From positions 64,001-128,000 of IMG/VR virus record IMGVR_UViG_3300035498_000530: 64,000 nt of DNA; one strand, written 5' to 3'. Numbering within the stretch: the stretch's first letter is position 1; every line of letters begins with the position of its first letter. This document shows, piece after piece, positions 1-18,283 of the stretch. A program made the position numbers and the translations under genes. The notes beneath the pieces are model-generated. The model ran no database searches. It saw only the letters and a program-made list of their open reading frames with translations, and was not told the origin of the DNA. The stretch comes from a virus. Its lineage: Duplodnaviria; Caudoviricetes.

Positions 1-810
1 TAAGAATTTAGCTTTTCTCATTGCATGCTCATTCTTAAGATGATCTGGTAATGAGACTGTTAAATCATCAACATTTGGCCCATTCAGTAATGCATTATAC
101 ATTCCACTACTAGAATTATTAGAATGCATATTGATAAGATCATTATATTGAGATCTATTATATATAGCACCGAGATTGGAATTCTTCTGTAATTTGGTTG
201 ACATAATTTCATCAGTATATTCTAATCCTTTGTCTTCCATTTTATTTCCAGTCATAAGTTCACCAAGACTAATATCTCCAAGCTCTTTATTTCTTTCAAT
301 ATTTCTATTGATAAGTTCCATAGCTTCGATTTGTTCTCTTGGTATCGGAATAGGATATTTTGGATAATCATTTCTCATATTATTAATAAGCTGCTGTTGT
401 TGTTGCATTCTTAATTGTTCTTCTTGAAAAGCTTTATATCCAAACTTATTTTCAAAATCATTATCAAATTCTTTTTCTTCTTCTGGACTAAGTGGTCCAT
501 TATAAAATTGGTCTAATGATTTGAATATATCTCTGAGTTTATTATATTCAGAGTTATATTGCTGTTGCTGCTGTAGTTCATACTGCTGCTGTTGTTGTTG
601 CATTGTATATGGGTTTACAAACCCTTGACCATAATAACCATTGTACCCCATATTATTATTGTACATATTATTTGGTCTGAAATAAGAATTATTGTTATTC
701 AATAAACTACCAATCGGTGCCGGTTGTGGCTGCATTGGACGATCATTCATATACGTTGCTGCCAAAGGACCTCTTGGTGGTCTGTTGTATTTTTGATTAA
801 AGTTGTCCAT
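1..810 (-). CDS. Partial (runs off window) hypothetical protein with N/Q/P/Y-rich low-complexity N-terminus
   Basis: Not in the ORF track. ATG at 810-808 with SD AAGAAAGGAC upstream; reads MDNFNQKYNRPPRGPLAATYMNDRPMQPQPAP...QQQQQQYELQQQQQ and stays open to position 1; early-type CATATTATA near 849-857. Confidence 0.85.
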   Translation of the reverse strand, partial: MDNFNQKYNRPPRGPLAATYMNDRPMQPQPAPIGSLLNNNNSYFRPNNMYNNNMGYNGYYGQGFVNPYTMQQQQQQYELQQQQQYNSEYNKLRDIFKSLDQFYNGPLSPEEEKEFDNDFENKFGYKAFQEEQLRMQQQQQLINNMRNDYPKYPIPIPREQIEAMELINRNIERNKELGDISLGELMTGNKMEDKGLEYTDEIMSTKLQKNSNLGAIYNRSQYNDLINMHSNNSSSGMYNALLNGPNVDDLTVSLPDHLKNEHAMRKAKFL

Positions 811-953
811 AATAAGTTTTGTCCTTTCTTGTTTCGACTTTCAACTTTATAATATGTATTTATAAAGTAAAATACCCCAAAGCGTAACTAAACGCTTTGG
901 TATATTCTTTATTCTTAAGTTTGATATTTTATAAAAAGTTACCCACAAAGGCA

Positions 954-5049: not shown

Positions 5050-6722
5050 TATTCATCCTCCTCAATATTCTTTCCCACAGAAGGTGACTTTAAATATCCG
5101 ATTATACTAGATGCAAATGCTGCGCATTGGGCACCTGATAATTCTTTTGCCTTGGTTTCATAAAAATTTAAAAAAGATAAAGTATTTTTTGCATGATGCT
5201 GTACTCCATCTAAAACTTTGTTTACAAATATTAACATGTCTTCAGCATCTTCTTTAATTGATGATTTTATTACTGAATATAATCTTGATTCTATGTTTTT
5301 CTGAATATGCCTTGGTTCTTCAATTCTATTCTTATCTGGCATATAAAGAATACTTATAAAGAATTCATAGTTATCTTTAAGTCTATATTCTAAATCATAC
5401 TTGAAGAGATAGTCTGCTCTCTGTCTTAAAATAAATTTAATAGCAGAATAGTATGTGTCTTTAAAATCATCTAATAATACCATATTGATAAATCGTATAG
5501 ATTTAGATGATTTTAATTCATATATTGATTCTGTTATATCATTTATAAAAATATTTATAAAATGACTATACTTTAATTTTATTAGCTCATCATCTATATT
5601 ATAGACTGGCTTTTTGAAAAATACAGAATCAATATATCCGTTTAATATACAATTGCTAATATAATTAATTCTTTCTCTAAAGAAATCCACGTAATTATCA
5701 ATGATTTTCATAATACCATCATAGTCTTCTTTATATTTATAATCATAGATATAATATTTATTGATAAATTGTCTTTTGACACTATCCATATCAAATTCTG
5801 CTTTAGAATCTTGTGAATCTGTAGAATTATCAGATTTCTCATTATCAGATAACCAATTTTCTTTTTCTGATATTCTCTTAATCATAGATTGAATATCATT
5901 ACAGATATACTTAATCATATTATATAAAGAAATAGCATCTTTATTTTCTAAGCGTGTTCCATCTGGAACTTTTGTTCTACTATAGACATATTCAAATAAA
6001 TCTTTATCTGTTATAAATCTTTTTTCTTTTATACACTTTGAAAGAATTTCGTCTGCTGCCATTATACTACCATATATCATATCAAAAAACAATGTGTCTC
6101 CACCAAAATAAATATTACAGAAAAGCGTTGCTTTACCGCCTGCAAATCTTCTATAATATTCAGCATCTTCAGAATAGCATGAAATGAGATCATCTAATTC
6201 TTCATCTAGTTCTGTATTGCCTTCATAATCTTTAAGAAGATTTAATGAATGATCATATAATAATTCTGTTGCAATATTGATTATATCATCCATAATACTC
6301 CCTATACTAGGAATACTATTAACGCTTACAGTATCAGGAGATTTATTCGTAGATAAGTAATGTCTAATACAATTATCCTTCTTAGGATCATAGTCTTCTT
6401 CTGACTCTTCTTTACAGAAATTATGTCTTGAGCAAATATATTCATAAAGATCTCCATTATGCCTTATAATACTCTGCATTTCTTGCTCTTGCTTACAGCA
6501 ATAAAATGCTACATTAGCTATATTATGACACATAGAAAATCCTATTTCTGATGCAAATAATGGACCTCTAAATATACTCATTTCATCATTATCTGGAGCA
6601 GTAATAGTTGATACATAATCAAATATTCTATCTGCAGCTCTATCTGGTCTACCTTCATTCATTGCGTCTGTTAAAGCTTCCTCCACTTCAACTCTAAGTT
6701 GATCATAGTTATAGTTTTTCAT
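5049..6722 (-). CDS. Hypothetical protein, paralog family A (long form)
   Basis: 557-aa ORF, SD AAGGAGG, early-type promoter at 6781-6789. Confidence 0.85.
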   Translation of the reverse strand: MKNYNYDQLRVEVEEALTDAMNEGRPDRAADRIFDYVSTITAPDNDEMSIFRGPLFASEIGFSMCHNIANVAFYCCKQEQEMQSIIRHNGDLYEYICSRHNFCKEESEEDYDPKKDNCIRHYLSTNKSPDTVSVNSIPSIGSIMDDIINIATELLYDHSLNLLKDYEGNTELDEELDDLISCYSEDAEYYRRFAGGKATLFCNIYFGGDTLFFDMIYGSIMAADEILSKCIKEKRFITDKDLFEYVYSRTKVPDGTRLENKDAISLYNMIKYICNDIQSMIKRISEKENWLSDNEKSDNSTDSQDSKAEFDMDSVKRQFINKYYIYDYKYKEDYDGIMKIIDNYVDFFRERINYISNCILNGYIDSVFFKKPVYNIDDELIKLKYSHFINIFINDITESIYELKSSKSIRFINMVLLDDFKDTYYSAIKFILRQRADYLFKYDLEYRLKDNYEFFISILYMPDKNRIEEPRHIQKNIESRLYSVIKSSIKEDAEDMLIFVNKVLDGVQHHAKNTLSFLNFYETKAKELSGAQCAAFASSIIGYLKSPSVGKNIEEDE

Positions 6723-6821
6723 TTTCGTTGTCCTCCTTATTGATCTTATAGTGTATTATATAACTTCTGTTATACAGATCTATAATATATAGTCAAAGCA
6801 TATTTAAATTATAAAAAATAA

Positions 6822-6849
6822 AACCCTAGAGCTATTACACTCTAGGGTT
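6822..6849 (-). terminator. Intrinsic terminator (CCCTAG family)
   Basis: AACCCTAGAG...CTCTAGGGTT stem followed by a U-tract on the minus strand. Confidence 0.8.
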
Positions 6850-6888
6850 ATTATTACAATAATATCAAGACTCATGCTTTGAATCTAT

Positions 6889-8322
6889 TCATTCTTTAAC
6901 ATGATTTTTAATATCAATATCTTTATCTGTAGTACTTGATGTTGGATTATTACTTAAGCCAGCCATACTATTATACAAATCCTGTTCAGATGGATCTACT
7001 ACAGGTTTAGGATCACACTTAGGTCCAGTATATGCAGTATTCTGATTAAAACTATATATGGGTGCTCCATAGTTAAGCTGCTGACCATAGTCAAATGGCA
7101 ACTGCTGATAAGGTTTAAATCCTGGATAATACTGCTGCGGCTGACCATACTGCATATGTGGGGTAAACGGATTCCAAGATTCATTCTTACTAGGATCATT
7201 ACTATAGTATTTTCTCTTATCTTCAAGTATAACCCTACAGCATTTATGCACCTCATTCATTATTCTTTCATCAAATAAATACAATAAAAAGTTCTTTTGA
7301 TTACCTGATAATGACTCGTTATCATATATACTATGTCTTATTTCATCGATTTCAAGTACTACACAAGAAAATGCTTCTACCTTGTTATTATGCTGTATAT
7401 TGATACTTGCATACAAATTAACAGAAATATTAAATAATTTATCGAGATATTCACGTAACCATTCAAAGCTACTTTCATTTTTACAATATTCTGAAAATTT
7501 GTTTTCTATATCATCAAATTCTTTTCTGATATAACCAGGTTTATTTAATGATAATACATAACCAATACAGTCATATGCAATAGAATACCTAGATCCGAGC
7601 AAATTAAAAAGAACAAAATCAAATGATATTTTATTATGCAGTTCTTCTATGAATTCATCATACATTTTCAAATTGAAGTACTCTTTAATAATATCAGGAA
7701 TGCATTTTACTAAATATTCAGTAAATAAGATTTGAGTAGACTCTTTATAATCTGCTAAATCTTTCTCTATATTAATAGCAGTATCCATCCTATAATTTAT
7801 ATGATCCATAAAGTATTCAATCCAGTCAGCGCTATAATTGCTGCATGAAAATGGAAAACGACTTTTTAATGCTATGATTCTGTCATTTAATGAACTTTCT
7901 GAAGAGTTTATACTTGTGCATCCATGATGCATAAAATCTATAGCTAAAAGTTTTTCATAATTACGATCATACATAGAATCATATAAACTCATACCAATCA
8001 ATATATCATGATCGTTGAATCTTAATGAAGAATAAGAATAGATTACTGCAGGATCCAATGATACCATATCTTTTATTTTAGATACAATATAATTAAAAAG
8101 ATCATTAACTTTAGCTATTTTCTTATCCTCCAATGTAATTCTACAATATGATTTTCCATTAGAATCTGGTGTATAGAGCAACAAAGCTACATCTTTTGTA
8201 AATTTCTTATAAATGTCTTGATCATTAACAATATTATCAACCGAATATACTACTTGCTTTTGATCTTGATAAATAAAATCACCCATCTCCATTACTTCGT
8301 TTAAAAGTTCTTTTCTAATCAT
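6889..8322 (-). CDS. Hypothetical early protein, paralog family B
   Basis: KFTKDVALLLY, IPDIIKEY and KNFLLY motifs shared with 8503..9642 and 13375..14553; Q/Y/P-rich C-terminus. Confidence 0.85.
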   Translation of the reverse strand: MIRKELLNEVMEMGDFIYQDQKQVVYSVDNIVNDQDIYKKFTKDVALLLYTPDSNGKSYCRITLEDKKIAKVNDLFNYIVSKIKDMVSLDPAVIYSYSSLRFNDHDILIGMSLYDSMYDRNYEKLLAIDFMHHGCTSINSSESSLNDRIIALKSRFPFSCSNYSADWIEYFMDHINYRMDTAINIEKDLADYKESTQILFTEYLVKCIPDIIKEYFNLKMYDEFIEELHNKISFDFVLFNLLGSRYSIAYDCIGYVLSLNKPGYIRKEFDDIENKFSEYCKNESSFEWLREYLDKLFNISVNLYASINIQHNNKVEAFSCVVLEIDEIRHSIYDNESLSGNQKNFLLYLFDERIMNEVHKCCRVILEDKRKYYSNDPSKNESWNPFTPHMQYGQPQQYYPGFKPYQQLPFDYGQQLNYGAPIYSFNQNTAYTGPKCDPKPVVDPSEQDLYNSMAGLSNNPTSSTTDKDIDIKNHVKE

Positions 8323-8409
8323 AGTAGTTTCCTTTCTTGTATCTTAGTAGATACCTATGTATTATTATTTAGCTCAACATAATTGCTATATTATTACTAT
8401 TATAATATG
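8323..8409 (-). promoter_or_regulatory. Conserved early promoter + structured 5' leader, copy 1
   Basis: CATATTATA; UAGC-AAUUAUGUUGA-GCUA; AAUAAUACAUAG; GUAUCU-ACUA-AGAUAC; SD AAGAAAGGA. Confidence 0.8.
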
Positions 8410-8440
8410 TAACCATATGTACTAAGAATAGCAAAAAATA

Positions 8441-8468
8441 AACCCTAGTAGAATGAACTACTAGGGTT
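8441..8468 (-). terminator. Intrinsic terminator (CCCTAGTAG family)
   Basis: AACCCTAGTAG-AATGAA-CTACTAGGGTT. Confidence 0.85.
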
Positions 8469-8502
8469 ATTATTAATCAACAACATTAGTGCTTATGATC
8501 AT

Positions 8503-9642
8503 TTATTTTCTTCCATCATATGATGGAAAATTCTTATCTGGTGCTACAGTATTTAAATTATCCATCCAAGAAGTATTTCTATTATTAAATAAAGCCGCAC
8601 CAGCATCATATGGATTATTAGAATTAGACTCTAATGATGAAACTCTATATTCATCTTTACTTAATGAGAATATAGAATCTTTTATAGATTCGATAAGCTT
8701 TTGAGAAATATATAATAAAAATTCTTTTTCATTCTTAGACATTCTTGATCTTTTAATAGAATCTTCTATATTTTCAATTTCAGAAGAAGCATTTACATAA
8801 TTACGTTTCTTAAATATAGTAAATCGCAAATTATCTTTAATTGAGTCATATGGCATATTAAGTTCTTTACAAGAAGATATAGACTCAAGTAATTTTATTA
8901 TAAATTCATATGATTTTTGTTTTGGCTGGTATGATTCATCAAAGTATTTTGAATATTCATCATCAAATAACTTAAAATACTCATAAGTTTGTTTATCATT
9001 ATTACGACTCTCTAAATTAATCATTAGATCATATATTCTTGAATAATGGGCTGGATTTTGTCTATATAAAAATAAGGTGAATGGTATTTCATCTGTTTTA
9101 TCATCCAGATTATAATTAGCAACATAAGTTGCAAGATAGTATCTAAATATATCTGGTATACTATCATATATAAACTTTGCCAATAGTATATAATTAGGAG
9201 TTTTGCAATCTCCTAAAAATTGTTTAATATCAAACTTTCCCTTAAAAGCATAGCACCATGAACAATTATATATTCTTTCACCATTTGCGCCAGTATAATT
9301 AGTATTATATAAAATACTGTATAATATATCTACTTTATTTACATTAACACCCTGATTATATAAAGATTCAGCATTTAAAAGTTCATAATGCGGTATTTGA
9401 AGATATTTAGTATAAAAATCATCTGATGATCTTATATATTTACTGATTGGATCAATAATCCTATAAAAATCATCATTTATGGTTTTATAATTTGAATTAT
9501 CAAACAAATCTATAGTTGTACCTTCATATAAAGCAATAGTTAAACTACTCATAAATTCATGATATGATCTTTGATTAGAAATGATATCATATAACTTATA
9601 ATTATAATTTTGAGTATTGTTGCAATTTTCTTTCTTGTCCAT
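8503..9642 (-). CDS. Hypothetical early protein, paralog family B
   Basis: IPDIFRYY and EIENIEDSI...KEFLLY align with 6889..8322. Confidence 0.85.
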   Translation of the reverse strand: MDKKENCNNTQNYNYKLYDIISNQRSYHEFMSSLTIALYEGTTIDLFDNSNYKTINDDFYRIIDPISKYIRSSDDFYTKYLQIPHYELLNAESLYNQGVNVNKVDILYSILYNTNYTGANGERIYNCSWCYAFKGKFDIKQFLGDCKTPNYILLAKFIYDSIPDIFRYYLATYVANYNLDDKTDEIPFTLFLYRQNPAHYSRIYDLMINLESRNNDKQTYEYFKLFDDEYSKYFDESYQPKQKSYEFIIKLLESISSCKELNMPYDSIKDNLRFTIFKKRNYVNASSEIENIEDSIKRSRMSKNEKEFLLYISQKLIESIKDSIFSLSKDEYRVSSLESNSNNPYDAGAALFNNRNTSWMDNLNTVAPDKNFPSYDGRK

Positions 9643-9735
9643 AATTCTTATCCTTTCTTGTATCTTTTAAGATACTTATGTACATATTTATTATTAGCTT
9701 AGTACAATCGCTATATTTTATACTAATATAATATG
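9643..9735 (-). promoter_or_regulatory. Conserved early promoter + structured 5' leader, copy 2 (divergent loop)
   Basis: CATATTATA; UAGC-GAUUGUACUAA-GCUA; AUGUACAUAA; GUAUCU-UAAA-AGAUAC; AAGAAAGGA. Confidence 0.75.
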
Positions 9736-9767
9736 TGGTTAAATGGCATTTAACAAAAAATAAAACC

Positions 9768-10325
9768 CTAGTAGTATGAACTACTAGGGCTATTACTAAT
9801 CATAATATTAATATTTAAGTATTTACTACCAAATTCTTTTTCTAAATCTTCTAATATTTCATCTAACCATTCCATACGATTGTAAATAGGTGTAACAGGA
9901 TAAGTATTATTATTTTGCTCAATCTCAATAATAGGACTTATAGTAGGAATTAATGTTTTAATAGGTTTCAATTGATTATATTCTTCTGATCTATGAATTT
10001 CAGCTATAACATAGTAATCATAGAATCTATTTTCTCCTATATCATTAGCAGATTCTATAGTAGAATAGTCATCGCCTATATCTATAATCTTAAATCCGTA
10101 TCCATCAATATTGTTCAAGGAACATAGTTTATTAGTAATTCCAATACCAAAATCACTATATCTCCACTTTACATATTCATACTCTATATAATAGTATGGA
10201 GTTTCTTTTCCATTACCACTATAATACTTTATTGTATCTGCATAAGATAACTCTCTATAAAGATTCTTTATCTCTTCAAATGCTTTATTTTCGCATAATA
10301 TTATTACCTGAGATCTGAATCCCAT
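9768..10325 (-). CDS. Hypothetical protein
   Basis: 185-aa ORF; its stop lies inside the terminator hairpin 9766-9789. Confidence 0.75.
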   Translation of the reverse strand: MGFRSQVIILCENKAFEEIKNLYRELSYADTIKYYSGNGKETPYYYIEYEYVKWRYSDFGIGITNKLCSLNNIDGYGFKIIDIGDDYSTIESANDIGENRFYDYYVIAEIHRSEEYNQLKPIKTLIPTISPIIEIEQNNNTYPVTPIYNRMEWLDEILEDLEKEFGSKYLNINIMISNSPSSSYY

Positions 10326-10837
10326 AATTGATCATCCTTTCTATCTTCATCTTCTTCATAAATTATAGACATTGCTGATTCAATATCAAGACTAAAAATA
10401 TCAGTTTTATCTTGATATATAATTGGATATACAACTACAGACCTAATAACACAATCGTATTCGGGATGAGCATCACTAAATATATCTTTATTATGATTGT
10501 ATAATGCTATTGCTTCTGTTTTTGCTTCGTGCAGTGATGTGTAAATATCAGTACTATGACAAACAAAAGTACCCTGTCTAAATCCATCTACATGAAATAC
10601 TTCTGTAAATTGCCCAAAATAGTAAGTATTTGATTCTGGTTCCAGAAGCATTATAGTTTTAATAGAAGATTCATCATCATCCCATCTATCGGACTCTTTT
10701 AAATACTCTATTAATTTTTCTTTAGACTCAGAGAAACAATCAACAAGTCCATATACATTATTATACATTTTATGATAATGAATATAGAATAACTTTCTTT
10801 TGATTTCTCTTACATTGTCCTTGGTTTCAGCATCCAT
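10304..10837 (-). CDS. Hypothetical protein, family C (one SESKE domain)
   Basis: FSESKEKLIEYL...LEPESNTYYFG. Confidence 0.8.
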   Translation of the reverse strand: MDAETKDNVREIKRKLFYIHYHKMYNNVYGLVDCFSESKEKLIEYLKESDRWDDDESSIKTIMLLEPESNTYYFGQFTEVFHVDGFRQGTFVCHSTDIYTSLHEAKTEAIALYNHNKDIFSDAHPEYDCVIRSVVVYPIIYQDKTDIFSLDIESAMSIIYEEDEDRKDDQLWDSDLR

Positions 10838-10839
10838 AT

Positions 10840-11751
10840 TTAATCATCCTTTCTATTATATCCAGTTGTAAAATAATTGTAACGTTGAAAATGATAAATG
10901 CCATCTTCTTTGAATTTAACGCTTCTGTATAAATATATACATTTATACATATACTCGACTCTTTCATATCTAGAATCGCATTTACCATAAAAATTATCCA
11001 TAATCCTTTTGGTATCCTTTATTGCTTCTCTATATGAAACATATATGGTTGGAGACCAAGCGCTAACAATAGGATCATCATCTTCACTAGTATTTGAATA
11101 CCAATGGCTTTCTGTAATAAAATATGATGATGATTCTGGAACTCTTATAGTACTTATATAGCTATCATTATAATAACCATCAATATTATTACGTTTATCT
11201 GTAAGATACTCTATTAATTTTTCTTTAGATTCTGACATTACTCTGCATGCATCTCTAAAATAAATATAAAAAGTTTTAATTTTATTATCATCTACATTAT
11301 CATCGTAATCCAGGAGTTCAATATTACTATCTTCATAATAGTCTCCAATTTCTTCAGAATGAACTTTAGATATTATAATAACAGTTTTATATGCTTCCTT
11401 TCCTTCCTTAAAATGATTATTATACAATTCATTAGATTTGACTTTTGCATAATCATAATCTGTATATACATTATCATAATAGTTCAAAGCATCACAATTA
11501 TCAGAACATATTGTATTCCAATAAACTGCCTCTGTATATCCTGACTGATAATAAGTTTCAGCTTCAGGAAGATATATTGTTTCTACAATAGGATTATCCA
11601 CACACTGCAGAAGATTTGATACTTGATCTTCTGATTTGCATATAAATCTCACTCGCCTACCAGAAACAACATTAATTCCCTTTTCATATATTGCATAAAG
11701 CATCTCTACGCAATTATTCTTTATTGGATTGGTTTTTCTTTCTTCTTCCAT
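10840..11751 (-). CDS. Hypothetical protein, family C (two domains)
   Basis: KSEDQV...LPEAETYYQSGY and MSESKEKLIEYL...VPESSSYF. Confidence 0.85.
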   Translation of the reverse strand: MEEERKTNPIKNNCVEMLYAIYEKGINVVSGRRVRFICKSEDQVSNLLQCVDNPIVETIYLPEAETYYQSGYTEAVYWNTICSDNCDALNYYDNVYTDYDYAKVKSNELYNNHFKEGKEAYKTVIIISKVHSEEIGDYYEDSNIELLDYDDNVDDNKIKTFYIYFRDACRVMSESKEKLIEYLTDKRNNIDGYYNDSYISTIRVPESSSYFITESHWYSNTSEDDDPIVSAWSPTIYVSYREAIKDTKRIMDNFYGKCDSRYERVEYMYKCIYLYRSVKFKEDGIYHFQRYNYFTTGYNRKDD

Positions 11752-11835
11752 AATTTGTCCTTTCTTGTACTTATTGTACTTATGTATTATTTAATGACTC
11801 AACATAATTGTCATATTATACAAATCTATAATATA
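11752..11835 (-). promoter_or_regulatory. Conserved early promoter + structured 5' leader, copy 3
   Basis: TATATTATA; AUGAC-AAUUAUGUUGA-GUCAU; AAUAAUACAUAA; GUAC-AAUAA-GUAC; AAGAAAGGA. Confidence 0.8.
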
Positions 11836-11868
11836 TAGTCATATGGTATTTAAATTATAAAAAATAAA

Positions 11869-11894
11869 ACCCTAGTAGAATGAACTACTAGGGT
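11869..11894 (-). terminator. Intrinsic terminator (CCCTAGTAG family)
   Basis: ACCCTAGTAG-AATGAA-CTACTAGGGT, same core as 8443-8466. Confidence 0.85.
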
Positions 11895-11902
11895 ACTTTT
11901 AT

Positions 11903-12334
11903 TTAGTCTTCGATAGTGCTTATAGTTTCAAGAACATAAGCATCTTCTCCTCTGCCTTTGATAAGCATATATAATGTTTTCTCTGATGATTGCAATTCAT
12001 ATGTCTGATTTTGTCTGCAAAACATACCTTTATTATTTCTATAAAGATCTTCAAGATTCTCTTTAGATTTAGTAGATAATATGCAGATATTTCCATAATA
12101 TGGAATAAATTTTTCGTCTCCTTCATCATTAGAGACCCATTCAGCATATTCAGCTTGATAATATGCATCTTGTTCTGGAAGTCTCAAAGTTATTAATCTT
12201 TTATTAATATCTTCTTGATTCTTCCATCTTTTGCTTATATATTGATATACTAGTTCTTTTGACTCAGACATGTATCTTACAAGGCCTCCGTCATTATAAG
12301 CATAAAATATCTTTGAATTTCTATCAAATAACAT
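11903..12334 (-). CDS. Hypothetical protein, family C (one domain)
   Basis: YMSESKELV...LRLPEQDAYYQAEY. Confidence 0.8.
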   Translation of the reverse strand: MLFDRNSKIFYAYNDGGLVRYMSESKELVYQYISKRWKNQEDINKRLITLRLPEQDAYYQAEYAEWVSNDEGDEKFIPYYGNICILSTKSKENLEDLYRNNKGMFCRQNQTYELQSSEKTLYMLIKGRGEDAYVLETISTIED

Positions 12335-12336
12335 AA

Positions 12337-13218
12337 TTAGTTATCCTCTTTTCTTATTACTTTACTAAGACTCTTATAGTTGTTAAGACAATAAAAGCCG
12401 TCTCCATCTTCTTCATATGAATATATAGTCACGTTACCAAAAAGATATTTGTATTTATTAGAAGTAATTTTATTATCTTCATAAATATCAAATGCTCTTC
12501 TTTCTGCTTCAGCGGCTGATAAACAAACGTTAGTATTATAAGATTTAGACATAACAGGATTTTTACCAAAACTAAACCATTCTTCATAGCATCCTATATA
12601 ATAAATATCACTACTTGGAAGTTTCAATTCAATTATTGCATCTTTATTGATGTTATTCCAACTTGATATTTCACTAATAAGATCTTCTTTAGACTCTGAC
12701 ATTATTCTTATTACACCCTGTTCAACATAAGCATAAATCGTTTTAAAATCTTTATTATCAGTATCCTTTTTATCATCTATATATTCAGTATTAGTAACTG
12801 CATAGTATTCCCCAATATAGCGAGTATTTACTTTGGATATTGTGTTTATTACATTATATGACTCTACTCCTTCTTTAGAATGATCATTATATAATCTTTC
12901 ACCATCCATTACAGCATCATTATAGTTTGCATATACATCACCATAATATTCAATAGTATCACGAACATAATCTCTATTTACTTTACGATAAATTACTTCA
13001 TGATATCCCGCCTGATAATATACATCTGATTTTTGAAAGTGGAGTTTCATAGCACATAAATTTTTATTTCTCAACAGTTTAAATGCCTGATCCTCTGAAT
13101 CACTTAAATATTTGATTTTAAAGTGACCTTCTGATAATGAATAACGTACTACATAATCATCTTTAGTTTCATTTGCATTTTCGTTTTCATTAACTTTCAT
13201 TTCTTCATTTTCTTCCAT
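12337..13218 (-). CDS. Hypothetical protein, family C (two domains)
   Basis: Colinear paralog of 10840..11751 (SEDQ...YYQAGYHE; MSESKED...LPSSDIYY). Confidence 0.85.
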   Translation of the reverse strand: MEENEEMKVNENENANETKDDYVVRYSLSEGHFKIKYLSDSEDQAFKLLRNKNLCAMKLHFQKSDVYYQAGYHEVIYRKVNRDYVRDTIEYYGDVYANYNDAVMDGERLYNDHSKEGVESYNVINTISKVNTRYIGEYYAVTNTEYIDDKKDTDNKDFKTIYAYVEQGVIRIMSESKEDLISEISSWNNINKDAIIELKLPSSDIYYIGCYEEWFSFGKNPVMSKSYNTNVCLSAAEAERRAFDIYEDNKITSNKYKYLFGNVTIYSYEEDGDGFYCLNNYKSLSKVIRKEDN

Positions 13219-13306
13219 AATCTTGTCCTTTCTTGTACTTATTGTACTTATGTATTATTATTTAGCTCAACATAATTGCCATATTATTATACAGATCTAT
13301 AATATA
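13219..13306 (-). promoter_or_regulatory. Conserved early promoter + structured 5' leader, copy 4
   Basis: TATATTATA; UGGC-AAUUAUGUUGA-GCUA (G-U pair); AAUAAUACAUAA; GUAC-AAUAA-GUAC; AAGAAAGGA. Confidence 0.8.
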
Positions 13307-13374
13307 TAGTCAAAGTATATTTAAATTATAAAAAATAAAAGACTGCCATAAGACAGTCTTTATTTATTAATCAA

Positions 13375-14553
13375 TCAGTAATGTACATTATACATATTCT
13401 CATAATCCCGAACAATACTATCCATGAAAATTAATTTTTTCTTTTCTTTGTTTAAATATGTATTATTATTAAAATACAACTTATCATACATCTCATCAGA
13501 AATTGTATCTTTGATTGATTCTTCATATTCTTTCATTACCCTATAGCACTCCTTATAAAGTTCTATTAATCCCTTTCTAATACCAGAATTATAATCTTTA
13601 TCAAAAAGACTAATGTTTGATATAATATAAATCATTTCATCAATAAACTTTGTCATATCTTCAAAATTAACCCTATTTATTATTACAGGCATTGAATTTT
13701 CTGATGATGGCTGCTTTACTACATATCTATGATGCTTATAAATCAATATAGCCTCAACCAATGCGTATATATATGTCAGCATAGCATTTAAAGACTCTTC
13801 ATCATGTAAACCACGACTTTCATTAAAATAACTCTGTATTTTGTTAGCATCTATTGTAGGTTTTGGTTTATTGTTTAATGAAAAAGGATCATAGTAATCT
13901 GGTGCTGGATGCATTATAGTATTGTATATATCAGTATGCTCAGATTCTGATATTTCAATATATGAATGAAAACTAATAACCCATTTAAAATTAAGCGGAT
14001 TTCTCTTAGTAAATTTCTCAAATATATTATCAAAATGTATATGTATATATCTTTGAATAATACTAGGAGCCATGTATGCAAAGATTGACATAAAAGCGGC
14101 AGAAGAATTAGTTATTTCATCTTTCTTATAATTTTCATAATTTCTTATATTGGTATATCTAATATTATTTGGATTGATCAAATTACGAGCTATATTAGTA
14201 TAGAATATATTGGATCGATTATCATTTATCAATCTATCCTGTAAATAATTAAAAAATCCATCAGGATCACGATAATTAGATTTATTGTATTCATAGTGGT
14301 ATCTAATAAATTCATCATCTGAAACAGAATACAGCATTTTAAACTCTTTAGAATCCACATTATCTTTAATAGTATTTATAAATTCTATAAAATAATTATA
14401 AACTATTGGATCATCAGACATATATGGTTCTACGTACTTCCAAATACTGTCTACATCATTTTTACGATATATCATATTTGCAATATCTCGTGTAAATTTG
14501 TAATACAGTGTTGAACTTGTCATGATACTAAAAATAGTTTTCTTTTCTTCCAT
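13375..14553 (-). CDS. Hypothetical early protein, probable family B
   Basis: KFTRDIANMIY and APSIIQRY resemble family B motifs. Confidence 0.8.
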   Translation of the reverse strand: MEEKKTIFSIMTSSTLYYKFTRDIANMIYRKNDVDSIWKYVEPYMSDDPIVYNYFIEFINTIKDNVDSKEFKMLYSVSDDEFIRYHYEYNKSNYRDPDGFFNYLQDRLINDNRSNIFYTNIARNLINPNNIRYTNIRNYENYKKDEITNSSAAFMSIFAYMAPSIIQRYIHIHFDNIFEKFTKRNPLNFKWVISFHSYIEISESEHTDIYNTIMHPAPDYYDPFSLNNKPKPTIDANKIQSYFNESRGLHDEESLNAMLTYIYALVEAILIYKHHRYVVKQPSSENSMPVIINRVNFEDMTKFIDEMIYIISNISLFDKDYNSGIRKGLIELYKECYRVMKEYEESIKDTISDEMYDKLYFNNNTYLNKEKKKLIFMDSIVRDYENMYNVHY

Positions 14554-14643
14554 AATCTTATCCTTTCTTATATCTTCTTAAGATACCTATGTATTATTTA
14601 ATGACTCAACATAATTGTCATATTATTATACTACTATAATATA
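14554..14643 (-). promoter_or_regulatory. Conserved early promoter + structured 5' leader, copy 5
   Basis: TATATTATA; AUGAC-AAUUAUGUUGA-GUCAU; AAUAAUACAUAG; GUAUCUU-AAG-AAGAUAU; AAGAAAGGA. Confidence 0.8.
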
Positions 14644-14710
14644 TAATCATGTATACTAAAAATAACAAAAAATAAAACCCTAGTATTAATTACTAGGGTT
14701 ATTATCTTGT

Positions 14711-15253
14711 TTAAACTGATTCTTTTTCAGTTAATAATCTTAATCTGATTTCTCTCATCTTATCTGCACTCAACTCAGGTTTAGAATAACTGCTTATATT
14801 TATATTATCAAATAATCCAATAGCAAGTTGTAAATCTTGTTCATAAGTATATTCATCTTTTTCAATATCAGATTGGTACTTCTCTTGGTTGTGCACATGA
14901 TGTTCCTTAAGAAGTATTAATGTAATCCCTCTTAAAACATTTTCAACTATATTACCATAAATAATATGATAATCGCTAGGTAAATTTTCTTTAACTTTAC
15001 TTACAAGAATATTATGTAATTTAGTTATGCCTTCATCTGTAAACATATCATCAATGTTTCTATCTTTTGACAAATAATGAAAAATATATAATTCCTTTAA
15101 TCTATTTTCATAAATCTCAATAGTATTATTGATACATTGTTCTACTTCAGCCTTGATATATTCATCAAAATTAATTTGTTCAGTTAATCCACGTCTAATA
15201 CGTTCAATTGATTCTTCGCTTAATTTTCCATTACACATGTTTTCTTTATTCAT
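14711..15253 (-). CDS. Hypothetical early protein (start corrected to MNKENM at 15253)
   Basis: The SD AAGAAAGGA and the conserved leader sit just upstream of ATG 15253; the track start (15277) falls inside the leader hairpin. Confidence 0.8.
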   Translation of the reverse strand: MNKENMCNGKLSEESIERIRRGLTEQINFDEYIKAEVEQCINNTIEIYENRLKELYIFHYLSKDRNIDDMFTDEGITKLHNILVSKVKENLPSDYHIIYGNIVENVLRGITLILLKEHHVHNQEKYQSDIEKDEYTYEQDLQLAIGLFDNINISSYSKPELSADKMREIRLRLLTEKESV

Positions 15254-15340
15254 AACTTTTTCCTTTCTTGTACTCATTTGTACCTATGTATTATTATTTA
15301 GCTCAACATAATTGCTATATTATTATACTACTATAATATG
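15254..15340 (-). promoter_or_regulatory. Conserved early promoter + structured 5' leader, copy 6
   Basis: CATATTATA; UAGC-AAUUAUGUUGA-GCUA; AAUAAUACAUAG; GUAC-AAAUGA-GUAC; AAGAAAGGA. Confidence 0.8.
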
Positions 15341-15369
15341 TAATCATTGTAATTATATTTAACAAAAGA

Positions 15370-15404
15370 TATCCCTAAGGAATTTACTATGTTCCTTAGG
15401 GATA
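15370..15404 (-). terminator. Intrinsic terminator
   Basis: TATCCCTAAGGAA-TTTACTATG-TTCCTTAGGGATA; core repeated at 25847-25875. Confidence 0.8.
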
Positions 15405-15409
15405 AATGT

Positions 15410-15742
15410 TTAGTCGTCTTTAAATGCTACATTTAGAATTCTTAGTCTTACTGTCTCATAATACTTAATAAGCATATTTTTTCCATATCTTACTTCCATG
15501 GTTTCAATATCTTCTATAAATTTTCTTTTTACGTTATATATGATTCTGTTAGCAACAGATTCATCTAATCCAAAATCTCTAGCTAATATCATTAGTTCTC
15601 TATCCTGAGATTTAAAATCATGTGTAGTCATAGAGTTTAACTTCTCTTGAGAATATGACATATTAGCTCTTTTATTTTTATCATAATATTGATCTGGTCC
15701 GTATGTATAATCATATTGAATTGAACCATAATGGGTCGACAT
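15410..15742 (-). CDS. Hypothetical protein
   Basis: 110-aa ORF in an operon with thyX. Confidence 0.75.
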   Translation of the reverse strand: MSTHYGSIQYDYTYGPDQYYDKNKRANMSYSQEKLNSMTTHDFKSQDRELMILARDFGLDESVANRIIYNVKRKFIEDIETMEVRYGKNMLIKYYETVRLRILNVAFKDD

Positions 15743-15744
15743 AC

Positions 15745-16200
15745 TTATACCTCCGATGTGTTATTTTCGACTATCAAGTCAGTTACTCCTAAATATATGT
15801 AATGAGCAATTATATCAAATGGATCACTAAAATACATAAATAATACAGTTAATATCTGATCTGATATTCTATATTTAACACGACTGAGGACTTGCTTTCG
15901 AAGATCCATTTCATCTTCTTCTGTAAGATATTCTTTATTCTGAATCGTCGTAGGATTCAATATTAATACTTCTTTTATAGATTCATCTACAATAAGCTTT
16001 ATATATTCTATAGTATTCTTATATCCTTGAACTATATCAAGCTGAGATACCATAGTATTAGATGTATATATAGCTTTTCTCTCAAAGAATAATGAGATAA
16101 GAGCTTTTCCAATGAAGTACATTCCTGTATATAATATTACAAAGAATACTATCATCATAATAGCCATAAATATCTGGTAATTAAGCATCGTATATGTCAC
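15745..16200 (-). CDS. Hypothetical membrane-anchored protein
   Basis: N-terminal hydrophobic helix IFMAIMMIVFFVILYTGMYFIG. Confidence 0.75.
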   Translation of the reverse strand: MTYTMLNYQIFMAIMMIVFFVILYTGMYFIGKALISLFFERKAIYTSNTMVSQLDIVQGYKNTIEYIKLIVDESIKEVLILNPTTIQNKEYLTEEDEMDLRKQVLSRVKYRISDQILTVLFMYFSDPFDIIAHYIYLGVTDLIVENNTSEV

Positions 16201-17341
16201 CTCCTAATGATCTTATGTATGGAGTTAATACTTTATCTAAAGACAAAGCATACTTTCTTATCTCATCCTGAGCATGTGGATCTGTTCTTAACTCTATAAA
16301 CTTCTTATAATTACCCAAAGTCATAGTCATATACAATTCATAACAGTTTGTATTATTAAGAAGTACTGCTCTAGCATCTTCTTTTTTAATACCCTGTGAT
16401 ACTAAATTTGAATAATTATTAGTAGCATTGTAAAAGAGAAGATTACATAACTGACTGAATTCGAATTCTCCTTCAAGACCTTCAACACTATATAACTGTC
16501 CTTTATAAGCATCCGGATTAGGAACAGTAAATGAAGCATGAGAAGAATCTACATATCTCTGACTCTGCTGAGTAATACCATTTCTATGTCTTACTAATTG
16601 ATGAGTTGCTGTTCTAGAAGCATTAATGAATCTTACAGTTACAGTACTAGTATTAAGTATATCAAGTGGAAGATTTCTATATCTATTATTAGATATCTCA
16701 GAAAATGTAGTATCTCCTGATATAATCTCTACATACTTATCATCTACACCAAATAACTTCTTTCCTTCTTCTTTCAATTCTTCATTAAGCTTCTCTATAT
16801 CTTCTGGACTATATGTATTCAAGCTATCTGACTCTGAAAATACATCAAATTCACTAATCGGGAATGTTTCTGCATAATCAACAGATCCAAATAAATCTTT
16901 TCCCCATGATGTATTTTCTATTATAGCTATAAGCATTTCTTCTATAATTAAGCATATTGAATCATCATCATATAACTTTGAATCTGCATATACCATATTA
17001 AATAAATGGATATATCCTCTAATAGATCCACTTATAATAATAGATGCTAACAAATCTTCATTCTCATAAGAATAATCCTTCAACTGGAATACGTTAAGAT
17101 ATTTACAATATGTAAGTAATGTAATTATATCTTCCAAACACAAAGCATAAGAGATATCAACTCTCATAGATATATTAGAGTGCTCTAATACGCTAGTATG
17201 ACCACTCTTTATTCTTCTCTTAATATAATCAAGTTTACCTTCTCTATCCTCAGGTAATTTAGTATTATAGCATGATGAGCATGCCTTACTACAAATATCA
17301 ACAGCATCATTATATCCTAAAATCTCTATATCTACACACAT
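16181..17341 (-). CDS. thyX: FAD-dependent thymidylate synthase with a large central insertion
   Basis: GHTSVLEH; SRTATHQLVRHRNGITQQSQRY; EDARAVL; LRTDPHAQDEIR. Confidence 0.9.
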   Translation of the reverse strand: MCVDIEILGYNDAVDICSKACSSCYNTKLPEDREGKLDYIKRRIKSGHTSVLEHSNISMRVDISYALCLEDIITLLTYCKYLNVFQLKDYSYENEDLLASIIISGSIRGYIHLFNMVYADSKLYDDDSICLIIEEMLIAIIENTSWGKDLFGSVDYAETFPISEFDVFSESDSLNTYSPEDIEKLNEELKEEGKKLFGVDDKYVEIISGDTTFSEISNNRYRNLPLDILNTSTVTVRFINASRTATHQLVRHRNGITQQSQRYVDSSHASFTVPNPDAYKGQLYSVEGLEGEFEFSQLCNLLFYNATNNYSNLVSQGIKKEDARAVLLNNTNCYELYMTMTLGNYKKFIELRTDPHAQDEIRKYALSLDKVLTPYIRSLGGDIYDA

Positions 17342-18146: not shown

Positions 18147-18283
18147 AAACAAAGGAGCGCCCAGTAGACCGATCCTACTGGGCATAATTTGTAACAATAC
18201 ATACAAGAAAGGTTTAATGGAAATCTTATATTCCAACTTATGAAACTTAAGGGACATTTATGGACAATATTTTATTGACCCTC
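18147..18283 (-). ncRNA. Candidate trans-acting sRNA antisense to the conserved early leader
   Basis: Promoter AACA-TATAAG-TG (18294-18283); terminator stem 18159-18183; contains UUCCAU-UAAA-CCUUUCUU-G-UAUGUAUUGUU. Confidence 0.65.

Follow-up and report, generated by a model that had tools for sequence, protein, structure and literature searches.

What is one 5' leader doing at the head of six different transcription units in a single phage genome? The question is raised by a 64,000-nucleotide (nt) stretch of DNA, positions 64,001 to 128,000 of IMG/VR record IMGVR_UViG_3300035498_000530, which is the window analyzed here and which comes from an uncultured phage known from sequence alone; CheckV places the completeness of its 167-kb contig at 68%. 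All genes across 6.8 to 17.3 kb of the window are on the minus strand, and six leader copies (c1 to c6), whose 3' ends at 8323, 9643, 11752, 13219, 14554 and 15254 are the bases preceding the respective ATGs, each head their own transcription unit of ORFan paralogs. The initial annotation had placed the copies at these positions, between a YATATTATA promoter and the Shine-Dalgarno sequence (SD), and both statements are borne out; the promoter matches the early consensus of phage AR9. The contig search and a covariance model (CM) found six full copies in the 167-kb contig, a lower bound given that the contig is 68% complete and that an identical downstream protein is also found on a 222-kb contig. 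Jumbo phages with their own RNA polymerases (RNAPs) time their genes by promoter classes, and to our knowledge almost nothing is known about post-transcriptional control in these phages.

We propose, with slightly more confidence than doubt, that the six elements are copies of one AR9/PBS1-like early-gene cassette, and that their leader is a shared mRNA-stabilizing and co-regulation module that recombines like the promoter-early stem-loop (PeSL) cassettes. Each cassette would consist of an intrinsic terminator, an early promoter for a virion-packaged multisubunit RNAP and a conserved 70-81-nt 5' untranslated region (UTR) with a strong, permanently exposed SD. The RNA would begin at the conserved G of a GUA and form a compound 5'-terminal stem-loop, in which the +1 GUAU would pair with AUAC in the invariant AAUACAUA and stem 1 with its invariant 11-nt loop would form the tip, with an imperfect AU-rich helix between the two; a short variable second hairpin and then the SD would follow. 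The base-paired 5' end and the strong SD would shield early mRNAs from 5'-end-dependent decay, with translation constitutively on. One leader in six units would make a regulon that is jointly shut off, for which the best candidate agent is a late antisense-like small RNA (sRNA) at 18147-18283 that may pair from stem 2 across the SD to the AUG. Recombination between copies would keep the cassettes alike and reshuffle them, as with the PeSL cassettes of T4-like phages.

Cassette layout and the early promoter

In each copy, a G+C-rich intrinsic terminator with a T-run is followed by ~30 nt of AT-rich sequence, the invariant AYATATTATA and, 4-6 nt on, a conserved GTA. After the GTA come stem 1 of 4-5 bp with an 11-nt loop, an A-rich linker ending in the invariant UACAUAR and hairpin 2 of 4-7 bp, which is variable in sequence and length; the SD block AAGAAAGGA follows directly (0 nt), and the ATG 5-9 nt later. 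Predicted 5' UTR lengths in the six copies are 70-81 nt. Loop 1 is AAUUAUGUUGA in five copies and GAUUGUACUAA in c2 (5/6 identical).

The early promoters of AR9, mapped by differential RNA sequencing (dRNA-seq) and primer extension, have the form AAATATATATTAT-(6N)-G+1 and are used by the injected virion polymerase (PMC5312081). The AR9-type consensus ATATATTAT-(6N)-G+1 is found upstream of genes in this phage, with exact spacing in c3, c4 and the copy at 6781, and in c1, c2, c5 and c6 the conserved G stands 4N after ATATTAT, i.e., 2 nt nearer than 6N. AYATATTATA occurs 36 times in the 167-kb contig and 17 times in the window, where ~5 occurrences are expected, and often lies 12-20 nt ahead of an SD. 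After intergenic ATATTAT, a T is found at +6 in 46 of 84 cases and a G at +7 in 27 of 84, compared with 37 and 17%, respectively, in coding sequence. Together, the match to the AR9 consensus and the intergenic T-G enrichment point to AYATATTATA as the early, virion-RNAP-type promoter of this phage, with the start expected at the G of the conserved GUA. By this promoter geometry, the most likely +1 lies ~10-12 nt upstream of stem 1, which would put both hairpins in the transcript, as their description as leader elements had presupposed.

Two RNAP beta-like proteins are encoded (two PF00562 matches over the family cut-off). One of them, a protein of 1499 amino acids (aa) encoded just upstream of the leader region, shares ~30% identity with the region of PBS1 genes 78-80, annotated as RNA polymerase beta subunit, and also matches the RNAP beta proteins of Listeria and Staphylococcus jumbo phages at ~30% identity; AR9 g078 is annotated as a virion RNAP subunit. 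By its sequence, the genome is assigned to the Firmicute-type jumbo phages of the AR9/PBS1 group. The late-promoter motif AAC(A/T)-N6-T(A/G) is found in none of the cassettes. A reading as host sigma-70 promoters was rejected: c4 contains TTGACT-16-TATAAT and c3 the weaker ATGACT-16-TATAAT, and the overall count of 80 matches against 83 expected is that of chance.

All copies and the cassettes described with them are on the minus strand. Copy c1 (8320..8410) has its promoter at 8401-8410, a predicted +1 G at 8397 and a 75-nt leader with stem 1 at 8385-8388/8370-8373, loop 1 at 8374-8384, ACAUAG at 8355-8360, hairpin 2 at 8339-8354 and the SD at 8330-8338, before the ATG (8320-8322) of a 477-aa ORFan; its CM score is 94 bits. 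The divergent copy c2 (9640..9736; CM score 73 bits) joins a promoter at 9727-9736 to an 81-nt leader and the ATG of a 379-aa ORFan, with the predicted +1 at 9723, stem 1 at 9710-9713/9695-9698, the loop GAUUGUACUAA at 9699-9709, ACAUAA at 9676-9681 with UGUA inserted before it, hairpin 2 at 9660-9675 and the SD at 9651-9659. In c3 (11749..11836), the promoter at 11827-11836 has the exact ATATTAT-6N-G form, and the 70-nt leader runs from the predicted +1 at 11821 through stem 1 (AUGAC/GUCAU, 11810-11814/11794-11798), loop (11799-11809), ACAUAA (11780-11785), hairpin 2 (11767-11779) and SD (11758-11766) to the ATG of a 303-aa ORFan, which is followed by 177-aa and 185-aa genes. The promoter of c4 (13216..13307) at 13298-13307 also has the exact 6N-G spacing; its 74-nt leader, ahead of a 293-aa ORFan and then a 143-aa gene, has a predicted +1 at 13292, stem 1 (UGGC/GCUA, with G.U) at 13278-13281/13263-13266, the loop at 13267-13277, ACAUAA at 13248-13253, hairpin 2 at 13235-13247 and the SD at 13226-13234. 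For c5 (14551..14644; 78-nt leader, ATG of a 392-aa ORFan), the corresponding positions are 14635-14644 for the promoter, 14631 for the predicted +1, 14617-14621/14601-14605 for stem 1 (AUGAC/GUCAU), 14606-14616 for the loop, 14587-14592 for ACAUAG, 14570-14586 for hairpin 2 (7 bp, one a G.U pair) and 14561-14569 for the SD. Copy c6 (15251..15341), with a 75-nt leader, places its promoter at 15332-15341, predicted +1 at 15328, stem 1 at 15314-15317/15299-15302, loop at 15303-15313, ACAUAG at 15284-15289, hairpin 2 at 15270-15283, SD at 15261-15269 and ATG at 15251-15253, the start of a 180-aa ORFan. Within 15251-15277, public gene calls and the longest-ORF (open reading frame) rule choose an ATG inside the hairpin-2 loop of c6 (188 aa); the ATG at 15253 (180 aa) is the likelier start, with SD spacing as in the other five copies.

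The intrinsic terminator before c1 is at 8441..8468, and the equivalent terminators of the other cassettes are at 9764-9791, 11869-11894, 13338-13361, 14676-14700 and 15370-15404. Terminator-like sites in 6600-15600 number 12 against 1.2 expected from shuffles, a tenfold excess, and the stem CCCTAGTAG/CTACTAGGG is common to four of the terminators. A seventh cassette (6720..6849) carries a terminator and a promoter of the type of c3 and c4 (the promoter copy 6781), followed by an unrelated leader: identity with c3 and c4 stops after GATCTGTATAA, and its leader has its own 7-bp hairpin beginning at +1 (6775; P = 0.93). At 808..857 (minus strand), an early promoter with predicted +1 at 842 heads a 32-nt leader that reuses the SD block ACAAGAAAGGAC, with both hairpins absent. 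The seventh cassette indicates that promoter and leader modules are separable, and the 808-857 unit that the hairpin module is apparently optional and separable from promoter and SD.

At 11813-11836 and the equivalent positions, an inverted repeat surrounds +1, with the promoter core ATATTATA as one arm and the first transcribed bases, TATAATAT, as the other; it is perfect in c3, and c4-c6 have an additional AAT. Every leader therefore also has an ATATTAT motif on its opposite strand; an antisense promoter within the leaders seems unlikely, as the G is missing at the right spacing.

Pairing at the predicted 5' end

When c3 and c4 were folded from +1, stem 1 was extended into a long imperfect helix whose base is formed by the +1 GUAU with the AUAC of AAUACAUA, and the minimum free energy structure of c4 is a 5'-terminal stem beginning at +1. 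The probability of this closing helix (GUAU:AUAC) is 0.84-0.98 in c3-c6, and at least 0.95 in c5 and c6 when the RNA is started at the conserved G. In such models stem 1 is best seen as the tip of a 5'-terminal stem-loop, which competes with the pseudoknot considered below.

The same tendency is found genome-wide. Among 20 predicted early transcripts, nt 1-3 are paired with P of at least 0.75 in 11, and the mean probability that nt 1-3 are paired is 0.59 vs. 0.26 in shuffles (Wilcoxon p = 0.002, or 0.006 without c3 and c4). The signal is maximal at a start offset of 0/-1 and lower on both sides; examples are found at 6775, 25017 and 60835 in the window and at genome positions 84589, 91255 and 96018. 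Late-promoter transcripts of the same genome show no +1 pairing bias (0.26 vs. 0.16 in shuffles, p = 0.13). The +1 hairpins are specific to the early class and therefore argue for selection on 5' structure. As modeled, a base-paired 5' end is a lineage-specific trait of the predicted early messages of this phage.

The SD is unpaired with a probability of 0.81-0.99 in every copy. Decay from the 5' end in Firmicutes relies on unpaired nucleotides, at least 2-3 in the case of BsRppH, and mRNAs are known to be stabilized by 5' stem-loops and by strong SDs, with ribosome binding near the 5' end (PMC3997798). In E. coli ompA, the B. subtilis aprE leader and the polypurine stabilizer of phage SP82, a hairpin at or 1-2 nt from +1 is likewise followed closely by a strong SD, an arrangement known to block entry of RppH/RNase J1 or RNase E (PMC3997798). 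Because the leader joins a 5' stem-loop to a strong open SD, its most economical function would be to provide a stable and efficiently translated early mRNA. It differs from these stabilizers in that its stem is long, AU-rich and imperfect, the invariant apical loop is superfluous for a plain stabilizer and the function is a predicted one.

Several observations weigh against this explanation. The probability of the closing helix is only 0.46-0.66 in c1 and c2; the helix is invariant, and so without support from covariation, and it owes part of its internal pairing to the self-complementarity of (AAU)n. The 4N spacing in c1, c2, c5 and c6 leaves +1 uncertain by ~2 nt. AR9 early transcripts with mapped starts are without +1 hairpins (0.16 vs. 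0.21), so the trait is not transferable from experiment. Fold energies of the leaders are no better than those of shuffles (z from -1.1 to +0.35), a stabilizer role alone leaves the invariant 11-nt loop without explanation and leader c6 is outside the top targets of the candidate sRNA.

A DNA-level element, in which a DNA-binding protein would end early transcription at the inverted repeat from +11 to +35, used as operator or roadblock, is very improbable in our judgment. Its dyad symmetry and position just downstream of +1 would suit such a role, as would the inverted repeat made up of the promoter core and the stem's 5' strand (ATATTATA/TATAATAT in c3). The half-sites, however, are merely 4-5 bp long and flank a spacer of 11 bp that is asymmetric and invariant, they change yet stay complementary, which a single protein would not require, and the +1 hairpins of other early promoters are unrelated in sequence.

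Covariation, conservation and the pseudoknot

Stem 1 is UAGC/GCUA in c1, c2 and c6, UGGC/GCUA with a G.U pair in c4 and AUGAC/GUCAU in c3 and c5, and stem 2 is either GUAC/GUAC (c3, c4 and c6) or GUAUC(U)/(A)GAUAC (c1, c2 and c5). In the six-copy alignment, 93.5% of the cells of the proposed pairs are paired and three pairs have changes on both sides, with a covariation score that was reached by 0 of 500 column shuffles. Two of these pairs are in stem 1 (A-U to G-C and G-C to A-U, with c4 as the G.U intermediate), and one in stem 2 switches between C-G and U-A, accompanied by symmetric lengthening. The claim that both stems covary thus stands as regards the compensatory pairs, but the AUGAC/GUCAU variant common to c3 and c5 is one event, the compensatory changes trace to very few independent events and the fold z-scores (-1.1 to +0.35) lend no support. 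The pairing probability from the predicted +1 is 0.23-0.89 for stem 1 and 0.5-1.0 for stem 2, and both stems are predicted to be thermodynamically weak.

Variation falls in the stems and the loop of hairpin 2 and leaves loop 1, UACAUA, the base of stem 2 and the SD unchanged, a pattern that argues for function. UTR identity among the copies is 72-91%, vs. 55-60% in the first 300 nt of coding sequence and a baseline of 52% for unrelated sequence, and the UTR is conserved more strongly than the region upstream of the promoter. The encoded proteins are paralogs with 27-38% identity that belong to two ORFan paralog families without a Pfam or PHROG match. All four combinations of promoter type and stem-1 type are present (c3, c4, c5 and c6); the haplotypes are mosaic, and segments therefore move between copies.

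Near-identical contigs carry identical leaders. In the nearest other phages (53% and ~40% identity in ThyX), the gene order RNAP-tmk-thyX-ORFans-RNase H is retained and promoters have the geometry GTATATTAT-AATCAT-G; the leader CM found nothing with E < 1 in them. No match was obtained with the CM in the first 100 kb of AR9, by megablast of the region against 50,697 phage records or by an exact-pattern scan of viral contigs. The 27 single-hit loci from a metagenome pattern scan were rejected as chance, the best having a CM score of 28 bits (E = 0.08) and being without hairpin 1 or promoter. Homolog searches for the cassette proteins with a single sequence, with profiles of both families against 5.8 billion proteins and with a full HMMER profile against 1.84 billion representatives returned only the phage's own proteins. 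The ~40% relative has its own repeated pair of early promoter-leader cassettes (L007:12893-13006 and 13309-13490), 88-90% identical and located before small genes, each with a ~14-bp hairpin that on reading the sequence begins near +3; repeated early cassettes may be common in the clade. Elsewhere in the window, a single ORF of ~7033 aa at 29898-50999 (plus strand) includes coding repeats with units of 12, 24 and 33 nt (AKEAAEK-like and GAEFVGNKVKG-like) in long arrays.

These results bear on a reading to which we assign a small chance, namely that the similarity is the footprint of recent cassette spread or gene conversion, and that the hairpins have no RNA function and owe their complementarity to palindrome-templated mutation or chance. 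It would account for the recombination that the mosaic haplotypes show, for the single origin of the variant of c3 and c5, for the unremarkable fold z-scores and for the confinement of the leader to one phage species, with no CM match in relatives or metagenome candidates. Less easily reconciled with it is that the stem-1 switch (AGC/GCU to GAC/GUC plus a new A-U), the G.U of c4 and the symmetric change in stem 2 all keep pairing, that variation spares the single-stranded blocks, that the UTR is conserved above the region upstream of the promoter and that +1 hairpins are specific to the early class.

The invariance of the loop could instead reflect an operator. We regard it as unlikely, though worth keeping in view, that hairpin 1 is read at its 11-nt loop by a sequence-specific RNA-binding protein of phage or host that coordinates the six early genes, analogous to the translational operators of T4 gene 43 or RegA; such a protein would be compatible with the stabilizing cassette that we favor. 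The stem changes with compensation around a loop that is identical in five of six copies, the contig holds no trans RNA with complementarity to loop 1, and varying stems and hairpin-2 loop beside fixed single-stranded blocks would suit sequence-specific recognition. The five loop substitutions in c2 speak against such an operator, as does the position of hairpin 1 ~40 nt upstream of the SD, too distant for simple steric occlusion; there is no RegA-family match, and the neighboring proteins are without a Pfam or PHROG family.

Loop 1 (8374-8384 and equivalents) also contains an AUG with a frame of 3-4 codons (MLS* or MLSH*), which is probably not translated. An upstream ORF in the loop (AUG UUG AGC UAA) was rejected as a candidate: it has no upstream SD, and the AUG is absent in c2. 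Likewise rejected was a MazF/EndoA site in the invariant UACAU, a pentamer that is not avoided in the genome (observed/expected 1.08).

The initial annotation proposed a compact H-type pseudoknot in which loop UUAUGU would pair with ACAUAR downstream and which would act as a ligand- or protein-responsive translational switch; we now consider this improbable. The pairing is present in all copies, and its geometry is feasible by sequence reading, with a connecting loop L1 of 2 nt over the 6-bp helix and an A-rich L3 of 9-10 nt over the stem of 4-5 bp. One-sided changes are wobble-compatible (U-A to U-G in three copies and A-U to G-U in c2), and mutual pairing could explain why loop and ACAUA are both invariant. 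Its frequency, however, is at chance level: a 6-bp match between an 11-nt loop and the linker occurs in 23-27% of shuffled loops and 10-12% of random intergenic 11-mers, i.e., in 10-27% of controls. No pair has a double change among only six related copies. The supposed change of both partners in c2 is not found, as the downstream ACAUAA is kept and UGUA is inserted; in register, c2 breaks two of six pairs, and the alternative UGUAC/GUACA pairing leans on the self-complementary GUAC, for which a match of at least 5 bp is found in 46-54% of random loops (P about 0.5). The ACAUA segment also has a competing partner in the transcript's own 5' end, with which the AUAC pairs.

Nor does the position of the putative pseudoknot suggest a switch. 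The SD follows ACAUAR at a distance of 20-25 nt, beyond hairpin 2, and is open in every copy, so no mechanism for sequestering it is visible. With E values up to 10 allowed, an Rfam cmscan across 6000-16500 matched none of the leaders and returned only sub-threshold hits, on the terminators. The likeness once drawn to preQ1-I riboswitches (RF00522) and the T4 gene-32 operator goes no further than a small H-type topology that can be drawn in a 5' leader: Rfam yields no match to the former, the pairing does not exceed chance and no helix includes the SD, and the latter controls one autoregulated gene for a single-stranded DNA-binding protein, whereas the leader is found on six different ORFans of two paralog families, with no in-register covariation of the pseudoknot among the six copies. 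Small pseudoknots drawn by eye in leaders with 25% GC are expected by chance.

The competition for ACAUA leads to a further proposal, for which we see a rather slim chance: the leader would be a regulatory RNA with two conformers, the GUAU:AUAC closing helix or the loop-ACAUAR pseudoknot, between which a phage factor or late sRNA would toggle the takeover genes from stable and translated to silenced. If true, such a two-conformer switch would define a phage post-transcriptional regulon of a new kind, one without a homolog in Rfam.

A candidate late sRNA and known cassettes

The candidate agent of joint shut-off in the stabilizing cassette model is an ORF-less late-promoter unit at 18147..18283 (minus strand), with an AACA-N6-TG promoter, a strong terminator hairpin and a fold z of -2.9. 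In antisense orientation, its middle segment aligns with c3 and c4 over a stretch that spans AUGGAA, the SD and both arms of stem 2, in the order 3' arm, 5' arm. Full-length RNAduplex of the sRNA against the leaders permits huge interior loops and is uninformative, and the middle segment was used instead. Its duplex energies of -27.8 kcal/mol with c3 and -27.1 kcal/mol with c4 rank first and second of 131 gene starts (mean -14.1, standard deviation 3.8), and c2, c1 and c5 are in the top eight. The complementarity covers the 3' half of the leader, not hairpin 1. At 18180-18226 (minus strand), the middle of the late unit resembles an inverted partial duplicate of a leader of the c3/c4 type (anti-AUGGAA, anti-SD and anti-stem 2), which suggests that the candidate sRNA arose via inverted duplication of a cassette. 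Of the protein-, ligand- or sRNA-responsive control originally envisaged, the sRNA option thus gains computational backing from the ranks of c3 and c4, and no switch that sequesters the SD is apparent.

PeSL cassettes, named by Krisch and colleagues in T4-like phages, are units of terminator and early promoter between ORFans that serve as points of homologous exchange (Arbiol et al. 2010, PMC2839356; Comeau et al. 2014, PMC4122927). The cassettes described here resemble them in being small units of terminator and early promoter repeated between variable ORFans in a plastic region (six full copies and a seventh with another leader), with a terminator 30-45 nt upstream of every promoter motif and mosaic haplotypes; their genes are lineage-specific, the syntenic region of 40%-identity relatives having different genes. 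Exchange is indicated by the mosaic haplotypes among the copies; the other genomes that carry the leader are near-identical. They differ from PeSLs in that the promoter is of the AR9 type, for a phage virion RNAP, whereas the PeSLs of T4-like phages have host sigma-70 promoters, and in that the most conserved part is the 70-81-nt structured 5' UTR downstream of the promoter, which is not described for PeSLs.

With AR9, the phage shares the promoter consensus and the 6N-G start geometry, as well as the phage group and ~30% identity to the PBS1/AR9 virion RNAP beta region. The early UTRs of AR9 are reported to share a motif of unknown function (Lavysh et al. 2017, PMC5312081); unlike the leaders described here, they begin with GAUA, are mostly short and are without +1 hairpins. 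The kind of cassette is thus itself known; what is new is the conserved leader added to it, the use of a different polymerase and the predicted +1 hairpin trait of the early class.

The region is a compact and testable case, in which a shared leader, six early ORFan genes, predicted +1 pairing, an exposed ribosome-binding site and a late antisense-like match come together. If the proposed explanation is true, it would reveal how the early messages of a jumbo phage are first stabilized and later silenced together, and would extend beyond the T4 group the role of terminator-promoter-leader cassettes as drivers of gene turnover.

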